This document shows, piece after piece, positions 9,146-27,312 of a DNA stretch of 64,000 nucleotides (the stretch's first letter is position 1; every line of letters begins with the position of its first letter). The DNA is taken from assembly GCF_964213995.1 (NCBI RefSeq), contig NW_027590156.1, forward strand, positions 124,001-188,000, read 5' to 3'. The position numbers and the translations under genes were made by a program. The notes under the pieces are model-generated. The model had not been told where the DNA came from and searched no databases. It worked only from the letters and a program-made list of their open reading frames with translations. The stretch is from Mustelus asterias. Its lineage: Eukaryota.

Positions 9146-10531
9146 AATATCTCAATATGTGCCAGTCTTTACAGCTGGCCGTGTGTGCACCTGTTTCCAA
9201 TATGCGGCAGTGCTGCCAGGGGAGGGAGCTCTCTTATCACTTATGCAAAGTCACCCATTCCCTTCTGGAGGAAGCGCCTGTTTGAAGATGTAAAAATGGG
9301 CGGAGACAGGGAGTCACGTTCGACCTCATGCCATTCCACTGACTGTTTCAACTTCTCCAATTGCAGTTCTGGTACAGTCAGTGATCACTGTCTCTGTTTC
9401 TGAAGCTCTAACTGGAACCATGGGGGTGAAATTCTGTCTGACTCTGGTTATTGTCCTGATCACAGCTCGGTCATTTTGAACCTTTGGGTGAAATCCATCA
9501 ATCACCAAATTAATTCCCCATTTCCATCTCGAGGCAATTATTCCGTTGTTGTTACTCCTAATCCGCTTTGTGGCCGCTGTTTATTTTCAGAGATAGAGTC
9601 ATAGAGTCACAGAGTCACAGGGGTTTGCAGCATAGAAACAGGCCCTTCGGCCCAACTTGTTCATGCTGCCCTTTTTGTTTAAACCCCTAAGCTAATGCCA
9701 ATTGCCCGCATTTGGCCCATATCCCTCTATACCCATCTTACCCATGTAACTGTCAAAATGCTTTTTAAAAGACAAAATTGTACCCGCCACTACTACTGCC
9801 TCTGGCAGCTTGTTCCAGACACTCACCACCCTCTGTGTGAAAAAAATGCCCCTCTGGAACTTTTGTATCTCTCCCCTCTCAACTTAAACCTATGCCCTCT
9901 GGTTTTAGACTTCACTATCTTTGGAAAAATATATTGACTGTCGAGCTGATCTGTGCCCCTCATTATTTTTTATACCTCTATAAGATCACCCCTCAGGCTC
10001 TATGCTCCAGAGAAAAAAGTCCCAGTCGATCCAGCCTCTCCTTATAACTCAAACAATCAAATCCCGGTAGCATTCGAGTAAATCTTTTCTGCACTCATTC
10101 TAATTTAATCCTTTCTATAATAGGGTGACCAGAACTGTACACAGTATTCCAAGTGTGGCCTCACCAATGTCTTGTCCAACTTCAACAAGACGTCCCAACT
10201 CCTGTATTCAATGTTCTGACCAATGAAACCAAGCATGCCGATGTCTTTTTCACCACTCTGTCCACCTGTGACTGCACTTTCAAGGAGCTATGAACATGTA
10301 ACCACAGATCTCTTTGCTCTGTAACTCTCCCCAACGCCCTACCATTAACTGAGTAAATCGTGCCCTGGTTCAATCTACCAAAATGCATCACCTCGCATTT
10401 GTCTAAATTAAACTCCATCTGCCATTCGTCAGCTCACTGGCCCAATTGACCAAGATCCCGTTGCAATCGGAGATAACTTTCTTCACTGACCACCATGCCA
10501 CCAATCTTGGTGTAATCTGCAAACTTACGAA

Positions 10532-10665
10532 CCACAATGCAGTTCACAGATCTGATTCAGTAAGAGGAGGTGAGAGTGCCTTTGTCGGTTTTTGTACGGG
10601 CTGACTGTGCCTCTGTAGCAGTGTGGGGCTCAGCGCACAGTGATACACGGCAGAGTCAGAGACAT
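10532..10665 (-). other. Inverted copy of the V2 3' end with its 23-RSS, inside the CR1
   Basis: 131/134 identical to the reverse complement of 13600-13733; heptamer 10619-10625, nonamer 10587-10595. Confidence 0.9.
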
Positions 10666-11415
10666 ACATTCTCATCCAAATCATTAATATACATGACAAA
10701 TAACAGTGGACCCAGCACTGATCCCTGAGGCATACCGCTGGCCACAGGCCTCCAGTTTTAAAGACAACCCTCTACAACCACACTCTGGCTTCTGTTAGGA
10801 AGCCACTTTTGTATCCATTTAGATACCTCACCCTGGATCCCTTGAGATTTAACCTTATGCAACAACCTACCATTCAGTACCTTGTCAAAGGCCTTGCTAA
10901 AGTCCATGTAGACAACATCAACTGCACTGCCCTCATCTACCATCTTGGTTACCCCTTCAAAAAACTCAATCAAATTTGTGAGACATGATTTTCCACTCAC
11001 CAAGCCATGCTGAGTGTTCCTAATCAGTCCTTGTGTCTCTAAATGCCTGTAGGACCTGTCTCTCAAAATACCTTCCAACAACTTACCCACCACAGATGTG
11101 AGGCTCGCAGGCCTGTAGTTCCCAGGCTTTTCCCTGAAGCCTCAACTTTCTCTGTAATATGTACAGTCTTCAAGACATCACTATTTATTTCCCCAAGTTC
11201 ACTAACACCCATGCTTTTCTCAACGGTAAATACTGATGAGAAATATTCATTTAGGATCTCACCCATCCCTGTGAATCGGCACATAGATTACCTTGTTGAC
11301 CCTTAAGAAGCCCTACTCTCTCCCTTGTTACTCCTTTGCCCTTTATGTATTTGCAGAAGCTCTTTGGATTCTCCTTTGCCTTTTCTGCCAAAACAACCTC
11401 GTGTCCCTTTTTTGC

Positions 11416-11606
11416 CCTCTTTTTAGGTCAAACCAAATAAACAAACTCAGATTAAGTCAGGACAAAGTAAAAGGGGCAGCGCCCCGAAAAGGAGGGGGAA
11501 CAGCCCGAACAGAAATCAAAGTACAAAGGAAACTTAAAAATATCAAACTAAAATGTGATTATTAGGGTCGATAACGCACCCCAACCCCTGCGGTGCCCAG
11601 CGGGCG
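11416..11606 (-). mobile_element. Nested 5'-truncated non-LTR element 3' end (Tx1/L1-like) with 16-bp TSD
   Basis: CGTGTCCCTTTTTTGC at 11400-11415 and 11607-11622; minus strand ends RWAPQGLGCVIDPNNHILV* followed by a T-rich UTR. Confidence 0.6.
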
Positions 11607-12271
11607 CGTGTCCCTTTTTTGCTTTCCTGATTTATCTCTTAACTCTATTCCTACACCCCCTATATTCTTCAAGGGATTCACTTGATCCCAGTGGCTATGC
11701 ATGTCATATGCCCCTTTCTTCTTCTTGACCAGGGCCTCAATATCCAGAGTCATCCAGGGTTCCCTACGTCTACCAGCCTTGCTCTTCACTCTAAGAGGAC
11801 TGTGCTTACCCTGAACCCTGATTAACACACTTTTGAAGCTTGCCACTTACCAGACGTCCCTTTGCCTTCCCACAGACTCCTCCAATTAACTTTTGAAAGT
11901 TCCTGCCTGCTACCATCAAAATTCGCCTTGCCCCAATTTAGAATTTTAACTTTTGGGCCATAAGATGAGTAACAGCGACTCAGTGCCCCAGTCAGAACCA
12001 GTTGTGAAGCAGCAGAGGGTGAAGATTCAGCAATACGATGCAGTTACTCTGCATCGAGTTCAGCTACACAACATGACCTGTTCTGGTATCGCCACTATCC
12101 ACACCGAGCTCCTCAGTATCTGCTCAGAGCCGCTAGTTATGGGTTTACCGATACGGCTCCCGGCTTTGAACACTTCAGTGAGAATCTCAACCTGAAACAA
12201 ACCACTTTTCACTTGTCCATGAAAGATTAGAAGGTGACAGACAGCGCCGTGTATTACTGTGCACCGAGACC

Positions 12272-12310
12272 CACAGTGAATGAGGCTCCCGCGGGCCTCA
12301 TACAAAAACT
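12272..12310 (+). promoter_or_regulatory. 23-RSS of V1
   Basis: CACAGTG, 23-nt spacer, ACAAAAACT. Confidence 0.92.
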
Positions 12311-25469: not shown

Positions 25470-25790
25470 TCCCGGATTTACAATAACAGCCGTGTTGCTG
25501 GGTAAGTCTGTGTGGCAGTTATTCTACATCTCATTTGTTAAATACGGCAACAGATTTTGATCCGTTTTGCATTTCGTTACAGGAACGAGCGCCGAGGAGT
25601 TGATGTCCATGGGCTCATTAGAGTTAACGATGCTGAAAGAACAGCCTGTAATTTTCTGCCATACTAACTCCACTTCTGAGTCCATCCTCAGCTGACGTTT
25701 TTTGTTTACTACATAAATTGCGGTATGGAGATTAGCGTCTCGATTTCCCAAACCGCTTCTCTGACGATCTCAATCAGGACAAAATGCCCG
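25470..25790 (+). pseudogene. Highly degraded V remnant (V6)
   Basis: Leader-like end VLLG with donor GTAAGT at about 25502; acceptor ttacag 25582; GTSAEE..QPVIFC; later LDFPNRFSDDLNQDK resembles SPDFPDRFSAELAQDK of V2; no 3' end or RSS. Confidence 0.5.
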
Positions 25791-25875
25791 GTAAATAGAT
25801 CTGGCTGCCTTCGTGAACCCGGGAACAAACCATTCGCGCAGAAGCAAACCTCGTGGAGCTGTAAATACTCGCTGA

Positions 25876-25914
25876 GGCTTTTGTAAGGCGTTTTAACTGT
25901 AATCTAACGCTGTG
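25876..25914 (-). promoter_or_regulatory. 23-RSS of V7
   Basis: CACAGCG, 23-nt spacer, ACAAAAGCC. Confidence 0.88.
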
Positions 25915-26405
25915 GCTCACTGCACAGTAATAGACCGCCCTGTACTCCACGTTGAGGGCGCTGATAGTGAGGTAACTGTTCCGCTTAGACCTGTCAGCAG
26001 CCGCCAGATATCGTCCTGAAACTTTGTCTTCCTTCATTGTTAATGTTTTGGAAATATTCCATGTCGGTGGCTGTGCCGATTTCTGCTGATACCATTGCAC
26101 GAAGTCCATATTCCTGTCTGTATATTTACAATCTAACTTCACCGAACCCCCTTCTGATGCGGTTATTGGCACCGGTGACTGAGTTACTGGATCTGCGCAC
26201 AGTCCACCTGCGAAGGTAGAGGAAAGAAATATCAAGAGTTAATATAAATTTGTTTGTATCTGCGATAGTTATTGGAACCTCCATTCTACGCATTACATGG
26301 ATATTTCAGATTGTTAGTTAAGTTGCCGTCAATATGTTTATCTGGTTTGATGAACGTCTTCCAGTACTTACTGTGCAAGAGCGTCGCCAGTATGAGCAGA
26401 AACAT
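25915..26405 (-). CDS. TCR alpha/delta-type V segment (V7), apparently intact
   Basis: Leader 26405-26372 MFLLILATLLH with donor GTAAGT; exon 26207-25915 GLCADPVTQSPVPITASEGGSVKLDCKY..VQWYQQKSAQPP..SYLTISALNVEYRAVYYCAVS; both Cys and the Trp present; promoter motifs TGAGTCA 26442-26448 and TGACATCA 26557-26564. Confidence 0.9.
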
Positions 26406-27004
26406 GTCTGACTGAATCCTTCTCAGTGAATGGGAATGGAATGAGTCAGAGATTGAGAAGGAGAGAGGAACCTGGGCTCTGTTCAACTCATTGCAGTGAG
26501 TGTGCGGGTGTGTGTGTGGGTGAGTGGGTGGGGTGGGGGGAGGGGTGTGTCTATTGTGACATCACAAACCTACCATCCATACAGGTTTCAATGATAATAT
26601 CACGTGTGTTTGTGGCGCTCGGGCTTGAATTTAGAGCCGTCAATTGGCAAATGTTTTTTTTTTATTGCACGCTCGGATTTTCCTGCTGATTTGATTCAGG
26701 GTTTACATATACCAAGACACAAACGCTGCTCAGATATCTGAATTGGAGTTCTTTAGATACTGACTTCGTTACTGTTGATATGCATTTGGGAAAACGATGC
26801 GAAATCTGCGGAAATCATTGCTAGAGTTCTCTGTTCAAATACTGGCGACGACGCAGTCGAGAGAACGCCAAGTCTTTGGAGTAAATAAGGAGGTTATAAA
26901 TCAGAATAGCGCCAGGGATTACCAGACTAATTTAGTTTCTTTATTTTATAAGCAAGAAGGTACAAAAGCGACTTAATTGATTTGTTCAGAATGTTCCCCT
27001 CTTC

Positions 27005-27312
27005 GGGGAGTAAAACGTCGTGTTATAGATACATTGTAAGTCACCGCTTCTCCTTCTGTCCGAACTGCTGAGGACATCGGCTGAGTGACAGAATCTCCAT
27101 GACGCATATATGGAAAAGGGTTCTCTTTGTCCGGAGGAGGTGGACTCATAGCAAAAAAGATTCTCCACCCCGGGTGCAGGCTAAACTTTGAATAAAGGGC
27201 ATAAAGCCAATCGAGTTGGAATTCACGACCGGAAATTGTTGAACACAAACTTGAGTCCCGAAGACTCACAGGTGGTCGAAAGTTGCACTTTGTAGTTCCA
27301 TGTCACCCCCAT
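27005..27312 (-). pseudogene. 5' V fragment (V8)
   Basis: Leader-like exon 27312-27270 with GTGAG donor; mutated acceptor; MRHGDSVTQPMSSAVRTEGEAVT/QCIYNTT, then truncated. Confidence 0.7.

Follow-up and report, generated by a model that had tools for sequence, protein, structure and literature searches.

The window analysed here is a 64,000-nt stretch of the Mustelus asterias assembly (C124:124001-188000) that contains a block of T cell receptor (TCR) variable (V) elements at 9420-27312; positions are counted within the window unless a contig is named. Because the arrangements V1-V2-V4 and V4-V8 recur elsewhere, the window is identified from its sequence as a paralogue of V blocks that stand at TCR-delta cassettes and immunoglobulin M (IgM) clusters. 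Paralogues of V1, V2 and V4 (78-83% DNA identity) keep their order and orientation at C119:534-538 kb, where they precede a delta constant (C) exon by 35-38 kb. The V1-V2 pair occurs twice at C436:192-199 kb (up to 87% DNA identity), 28-33 kb before a delta C, and a further copy of the V4-V8 stretch adjoins an IgM cluster at C71:12.47-12.49 Mb. The distance from the V block to an IgM minicluster is 35-50 kb. We consider it probable that the window represents one decaying copy of a duplicated antigen-receptor unit, other copies of which carry their own TCR-delta diversity-joining-constant (D-J-C) cassette. TCR-delta in this species is likely to be multi-cluster and uncoupled from J-alpha, as judged from the assembly.

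The V block and its single intact segment

Translation and scans for recombination signal sequences (RSSs) identified ten V elements in 9420-27312, six on the plus strand and four on the minus strand. The earlier note on this DNA had counted at least eight units, five plus and three minus, with seven of eight disabled. The cluster, its mixed orientation and its mostly dead state stand, whereas the counts do not, since nine of the ten elements are disabled and V7 is intact. The damage consists of stops, frameshifts, insertions, a lost cysteine, damaged heptamers and truncations. Seven RSSs with at most two mismatches and spacers of 21-24 nt are present in this interval, against a mean of 0.03 (maximum 1) expected from 100 first-order Markov resamples. 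As had been claimed, all RSSs of the V elements in the window are 23-type, and the single 21-nt spacer (at 24316) is upheld. The claimed lack of a 12-RSS, J or C also holds, as no J or C exon was found in the window and the only near-12 matches have three mismatches. The 12-spacer matches at 32049 and 32089 were rejected as J segments, having CA-repeat-like nonamers and no canonical J motif; the remaining match, at 45678, has a 13-nt spacer. Matches with 12-nt spacers at C124:427-435 kb were rejected for the same nonamers and missing motif.

V1 (9420-12310, plus strand; leader 9420-9468) is a TCR alpha/delta V pseudogene. The 5' end of its V exon is split by a 2.4-kb long interspersed nuclear element (LINE), and the exon has a frameshift and a TAG stop. 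Its RSS is good (CACAGTG-23-ACAAAAACT at 12272), and V1 shares 82-83% amino acid identity with Vs that precede delta cassettes of C436 and C119. The decayed LINE (9597-11960, minus strand; RVT_1 at 10761-11141) is 81-85% identical to an element at 50427-52240. Nested in it, in inverted orientation, is a 145-bp duplicate of the 3' end of V2 with its 23-RSS (10522-10665, minus strand; 95.9% identity to 13600-13744), which displaces about 10 bp of the LINE and lies 3 kb from V2. This fragment is likely a templated insertion at a repaired break, and, though counted among the ten elements, it is by its structure no independent V gene. V2 (13203-13678, plus strand) is a TCR alpha/delta V pseudogene with a TGA in the leader, a TAG in framework region 1 and a frameshift; its RSS is CACACTG-23-ACAAAAACC at 13640. 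The V2 family has at least 40 copies in the assembly with 81-100% identity (40 of 274 candidates scored), and the V exon of a copy on C104 is open.

V3 (14380-14934, plus strand) is a V pseudogene with a leader stop, a TGA stop and loss of the first cysteine and the tryptophan. V4 (20331-20676, minus strand) is a TCR alpha/delta V with an open exon, in which the second cysteine is changed to arginine; no leader was identified for it. The heptamers of both are damaged (TACAGTG at 14896 and CGCAGTG at 20369, respectively). A decayed V at 22233-22577 (plus strand), with a decayed RSS at 22539, belongs to a family found at the TCR-alpha locus on C546 (tblastn E value of 2e-8 to the Vs there). Three remnants complete the block. 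The 3' remnant at 24191-24352 (plus strand) keeps the RSS CACACTG-21-ACAAAAACC at 24316 and has repeats in place of its 5' part. A weak remnant of a V2-family V without RSS lies at 25582-25783 (plus strand), recognized by translation and by tblastn (E value of 2e-4 over 19 amino acids). The 5' remnant at 27027-27098 (minus strand) belongs to the DSVTQ family and shares 74-81% amino acid identity over 21-23 residues with intact neighbours. A leader proposed near 27312 was not confirmed, and the sequence at 28000-28430 was rejected as a V because it is a repeat flank common to 32987-33255. Of the CRE-type promoters claimed previously, CRE-like (cyclic AMP response element) motifs were found 5' of V1, V2, V3 and V7, with a perfect TGACGTCA at V3 only.

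The intact V7 (25876-26405, minus strand) is composed of a leader exon (26405-26372), a V exon (26207-25915) and an RSS (25914-25876; CACAGCG-23-ACAAAAGCC). Its spliced frame is open, with a 34-nt leader exon, a GTAAGT donor, a CAG acceptor and a phase-1 GT-AG intron, and the V exon keeps both cysteines and the tryptophan. V7 shares 66% identity with two catshark proteins. At least 80 near copies of its family exist in the assembly; among the first 80 of 150 matches, 73 are free of stops (counted by eye). A neighbouring family has 127 matches. V7-family members stand on both alpha and delta contigs. A TG at positions 8-9 after the start of the cysteine codon is present in V2, V3 and V7 and absent from V1, V4 and the 24.3-kb remnant. 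Such a T8G9 end is described as a V-alpha signature for shark and fish (PMC10322711), and its presence in V7 counts for the assignment to a TCR unit. V-alpha and V-delta are stated there to be indistinguishable from genomic sequence (PMC10322711).

The identity of the V elements was examined by database matches and phylogeny. Members of the DSVTQ family share 59-67% identity with sawshark, horned shark, skate and sawfish proteins. Among single-domain PDB matches of V1 and V4, TCR alpha chains are on top; the homologue search of the Atlas did not separate TCR from light chains. The V tree contains 70 rows (65 from genome DNA and five database proteins, with no light-chain, beta or gamma V). In this tree V2 is represented by the C104 copy, and five frameshifted pseudogenes, which were partly in the wrong frame and formed long branches, were not used for their positions. 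Bootstrap support of 95-100 was obtained for four placements. V1 joins Vs that precede a delta cassette (100/100), and V4 clusters with TCR proteins of sharks (98/85). The V2 family falls with Vs from both alpha and delta loci (95/83), and V7 with a V on C546, the contig of the second alpha locus (100/99). V3 groups weakly (87/77) with a gar V. None of the window Vs falls inside the heavy-chain V (VH) or NAR clades of the 70-row tree. The window Vs are accordingly classified, by their sequence, as TCR alpha/delta V segments, and the alpha/delta call of the earlier note is borne out by the PDB matches and by the grouping with Vs at TCR-alpha and TCR-delta J-C loci.

TCR-delta units and TCR-alpha loci

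The constant part of the sawshark TCR chain P0061 was used as the query for C exons, and all 69 candidates were scored. Searches for longer relatives gave no full-length TCR chain, and the representative search gave one, P0061. The Pfam family PF09291 found no TCR-alpha C. A C1 match at C71:987835 was rejected as a TCR C because it belongs to an Ig constant exon in the vicinity of a NAR-type V. Nineteen delta C exons were identified, three on C71 (7.14, 11.04 and 12.27 Mb), 16 on unplaced contigs and none on C124. All 19 are open, with one or two J segments within 8.8 kb upstream and a transmembrane (TM) exon 3-6 kb behind. In none of the five delta units read downstream was a J array found over the 16-20 kb that follow the TM exon. 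The upstream DNA, read for 10 of the 19, contains NAR-TCR V-D-J, supporting V and VH-like Vs in varying sets, and a D flanked by 12- and 23-RSSs was found in seven of these ten. In the unit at C71:11.0 Mb, an IgM cluster, three TCR Vs, J and C lie within 45 kb. Based on the D segments, the NAR-TCR Vs, the few J segments and the CLxxxFxP motif, described as a delta feature (PMC10322711), the 19 C units are assigned to TCR-delta.

The 10-kb delta units are 86-99.9% identical and form 11 groups at 99% identity and nine groups at 98%. The three units on C71 are mutually 92-96% identical and unlike in upstream content, and three copies are about 87% identical to the rest. At least three non-allelic delta copies are hard to explain away on these comparisons, and about ten are likely. 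Reads of the delta C exon were not counted as copy-number evidence, since their depth is no measure of copies and the runs may not be independent of each other. The read runs X1 and X2 behave as DNA, with introns covered; one contig has a depth of 120 in X2, against 7-26 for the listed V-region contigs, and X1 contains several variants, one with 14 differences in 102 bases.

Several delta units show further peculiarities. The cassettes at C436:210-227 kb and C119:550-573 kb contain a NAR V-D-J and a supporting V, with no D found before the J. Three perfect 23-RSSs with 61-bp spacing lie behind a NAR-TCR supporting V at C71:12229725-12229885, and two at C71:7091239. At C138:216100-219500 (minus strand), an open IgM-type VH is fused within the D to a TCR-delta D, J and C unit. 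Its 1.8-kb IgM flank shares 91% identity with the IgM cluster on C124, and its delta part shares 96% with a C71 cassette. The hybrid D has an IgM 5' 12-RSS and a delta 3' 23-RSS and resembles either a coding joint between two Ds or the product of a crossover in a run of G. The unit would amount to an Ig-TCR-delta chimera that is already hard-wired.

Two TCR-alpha C exons, 77% identical at the amino acid level, were identified. On C71 the alpha C lies at 18.42 Mb behind at least 26 J segments. No delta C, V or N (gap) was found in the 113 kb before the first J, and the nearest delta C is 6.1 Mb off on the same contig. The second alpha locus (C546:121-242 kb) has at least 119 J segments, many in tandem repeats, together with mixed-orientation Vs and a zinc-finger (ZNF) array, and no delta C was found on this contig. 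A delta C directly 5' of the J-alpha array, the mark of a single translocon, is thus present on neither C71 nor C546. C2H2 ZNF arrays (C71:18291-18362 kb and C546:68-96 kb) stand directly before both J-alpha arrays, in the usual place of delta.

These units could be regarded as the ordinary interior of the published elasmobranch complex, with scattered alpha/delta Vs serving one delta and one alpha locus; the surplus J-C units would then be dead copies, haplotigs or duplicates made by the assembly. In white shark and stingray, alpha/delta Vs of mixed orientation are listed between IgM clusters (Table S1, PMC12227049), the assembly is redundant (C104 repeats 59 kb at 95-99.5% identity and C71 the next 100 kb), and some delta pairs are 99.3-99.9% identical. 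Against this, three delta units on one contig are 4-8% apart with different upstream content, the approximately 87% delta class and the two alpha C exons at 77% are too distant for alleles, and every delta C exon is open. We regard this explanation as unlikely.

Slightly favoured is a fuller scenario built on the genomic data. TCR-delta would be spread over some ten working miniclusters, each with a V block, a NAR-TCR or VH-like V, D, J and C-delta, which alternate with IgM clusters and are detached from two separate J-alpha/C-alpha loci. The window would be one such V block, its cassette either gone or far away, and at least one germline IgM-VH/TCR-delta fusion would exist. Alpha rearrangement could not delete delta, and lineage and clonal exclusion would work as in multi-cluster shark antibodies. 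On the main reading, segmental duplication would have multiplied, in either orientation, the IgM clusters, the V blocks, the delta cassettes and the tRNA and ZNF sequence between them. Birth-and-death decay would have killed most Vs of each copy separately, with the families staying mostly open. RSSs are joined by the 12/23 rule, under which RAG could use V7 at long range, by deletion or inversion, with J-alpha or delta D/J segments. Alpha and delta chains of nurse shark have V families in common (PMC5931798). Because the delta cassettes stand away from the J-alpha arrays, rearrangement of V-alpha to J-alpha would spare some of them, suggesting that alpha/delta exclusion may operate by regulation instead of deletion.

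Surroundings of the V block

A complete IgM minicluster (VH-D-D-JH-C) was identified at C124:84.6-101 kb and ends 23 kb before the window. The D segments of this cluster, with their 12-RSSs, and its JH and C-mu exons are found at a distance of 23-39 kb from the window start, so the window edge explains why no IgM D, J or C is contained in the window. A lone decayed VH lies at C124:73625-73849, 11 kb before this cluster. A second IgM cluster is present at C124:525-538 kb. In addition, C124:21-31 and 190-265 kb contain no fewer than 15 TCR-type V elements, on both strands, so that C124 has more than 25 V elements in all. On the 20.4-Mb C71, the V field spans at least 6.5-17.4 Mb among IgH-type constant exons, and it extends to many unplaced contigs. 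TCR Vs are interleaved with IgH miniclusters, as in the elasmobranch antigen-receptor complex (AgRC). The link of this complex to TCR alpha and delta constants is present on C71, to which the unplaced C124 is tied only by collinearity: a stretch made up of the final 12 kb of the window and the 90 kb beyond it corresponds to C71:13.99-14.095 Mb with 97.9-99.6% identity. Since IgM clusters and TCR Vs surround it, as published for four other elasmobranchs (PMC12227049), the cluster is placed by its genomic context inside the shark antigen-receptor complex.

The earlier note had read the block either as the decaying edge of the alpha/delta locus or as an orphon carried by tRNA-array duplications. 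Both descriptions fail, as the block sits inside a V field interleaved with IgM clusters, and orphon status, in the sense of a position away from other receptor segments, does not apply with an IgM cluster 23 kb off and Vs on both sides. An orphon V cluster dispersed by tRNA-array duplications, with no access to a TCR J or C, would fit the unplaced state of C124, the lack of a TCR J or C on the parts searched and the nine dead elements of ten. It would also fit the C104 duplicate, a copy of the region including the V block, in which Vs, tRNAs and the G protein-coupled receptor (GPCR) gene travel together. The IgM clusters and more than 25 V elements on C124, the collinearity of part of C124 with the contig of TCR J-C loci, and the paralogous V blocks at delta cassettes make such an orphon very improbable; tRNAs are scattered over the whole region and do not show a driving role. 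As a separate observation, C104:1320-1380 kb is an inverted copy of window 12854-64000 and beyond. It lacks window 8000-12854, and with it V1, while its V2 exon is open and is expanded at the start by about 670 bases.

A third possibility is that the Vs between IgM clusters serve IgM, the 23-RSS of V7 joining the 12-RSS of IgM D1, 64 kb off, by inversion to give a TCR-V/IgM chimera. The RSSs at C124:149914 and 85387 fit the 12/23 rule and the geometry, and the reverse chimera, IgM VH-D fused to delta D-J-C, is in the assembly on C138. No TCR-V/IgM joined copy or transcript was seen, the window V families are those at TCR J-C loci, and the literature consulted describes TCR-delta chains that use VH, not IgM chains that use a TCR V. 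This possibility is hardly credible.

Several observations weigh against reading the window as a decaying copy of a unit linked to multi-cluster TCR-delta. The collinear part of C71 lacks the V block. C124 is an unplaced contig without a TCR C match, and no TCR J was found in the 458 kb read of its 1,125 kb. PDB matches of V7 are mostly multi-domain antibody constructs, and the deep branches of the V tree are not resolved. The query P0061 has the database label 'alpha chain-like', and no connecting-peptide exon could be located in the delta genes. The count of 19 is too high in that several delta units, at 99-99.9% identity, may be haplotigs. On C546, a 200-N gap separates the Vs from the J array; about 1 Mb of the 20.4-Mb C71 was read, and gaps or misjoins elsewhere on it are possible. 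The rearrangement and expression of V7 and of the delta cassettes are predictions from genomic DNA.

The tRNAs, ZNF gene and GPCR said to lie beside the cluster are present. A C2H2 ZNF array in two frames (Pfam) was identified at 1008-1940 (plus strand). Ten tRNA-like genes are contained in the window: the tRNA-Val (6023-6095) lies in repeat units at 5267-7322 (minus strand) that are related to units at 35791-38948, and nine Rfam matches to tRNA and tRNA-like genes are scattered over 28495-55128. A broken LINE with GDSL-like ORF1, endonuclease and reverse transcriptase domains (Pfam) lies at 15761-19682 (plus strand); from its domain layout we take it to be CR1-type. The broken class-A GPCR (60752-61324, plus strand) has stops and frame changes and a 7tm_1 match of 28.6 bits, below the cut-off of 30.5. 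It shows weak matches to CCKAR and GPR139 and, among all Pfam families, no match to an olfactory family.

The proposed resemblance to neighbourhoods of the major histocompatibility complex (MHC) and olfactory receptors was not upheld. The 140 MHC class I matches map without exception to C8 (150 of 156 candidates were scored), the GPCR is not olfactory, and ZNF arrays also precede the J-alpha arrays. No MHC class I or olfactory receptor gene was found near the window; class II was not searched for. The link to the MHC is one of paralogy, as argued previously (PMC10751288; PMC12227049), with no linkage at the window.

Comparison with known antigen-receptor systems

Shark TCR genes are described as single translocons, unlike shark antibodies (PMC6795676; PMC12227049), and in nearly all jawed vertebrates delta lies within the alpha locus or next to it, with extra delta loci listed for a few vertebrates other than sharks (PMC12698447). 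The antigen-receptor region is often split across unplaced scaffolds (PMC10751288). Mixed-orientation alpha/delta Vs between IgM clusters are already known (PMC12227049), and the V cluster alone is ordinary for sharks. The part for which we have seen no published account is the context, a V block that recurs before delta cassettes in an assembly with many of them. No report of multiplied TCR-delta in a shark was found in the literature searched, which missed some primary shark TCR papers and the PDF supplement of PMC12227049. Multicluster TCR-beta-like genes were reportedly proposed in horned shark by Rast and Litman.

Many diverged delta cassettes would open three questions to direct tests with C-region-specific reads: by what means a T cell settles on a single delta cluster, whether delta must be deleted for alpha/delta exclusion, and whether shark Ig-TCR-delta chimeras come from neighbouring or even pre-fused genes or from long-range trans-rearrangement.

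The elasmobranch AgRC is similar to the window. It contains alpha/delta Vs, some of them pseudogenes, in both orientations between IgM miniclusters over megabases, and also mixes in NAR-TCR and VH-like Vs (PMC12227049). That paper presents TCR alpha/delta as a translocon, whereas 19 delta J-C units and two alpha loci without a preceding delta C were found here. Its table gives at most one delta C per species, beside the alpha C in catshark and stingray; the table contains chosen gene models only, and extra copies are possible. The canonical TRA/TRD order, 5'-trdc-(traj)n-trac-3' (PMC10322711; PMC12698447), has in common with M. asterias the leader-intron-V-23RSS structure, the 12-RSS J-alpha array before C-alpha and the T8G9 end. 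It differs in the position of delta, absent here from the 113 kb before the J-alpha array on C71.

The closest parallel to a multiplied TCR-delta is TCR-mu of marsupials and platypus, a delta-derived chain with five to nine duplicated clusters, some partial, and a ZNF flank in marsupials (PMC7615758). TCR-mu is a separate chain at an unlinked locus, whereas here TCR-delta itself appears among IgM clusters and free Vs, with clusters of varying contents (NAR-TCR, VH-like V, with or without D). In the newt, delta is uncoupled from alpha and two TRA loci are present, as in M. asterias (PMC12698447). The newt loci are on different chromosomes and delta is single, whereas one alpha locus and three delta units share one contig here.

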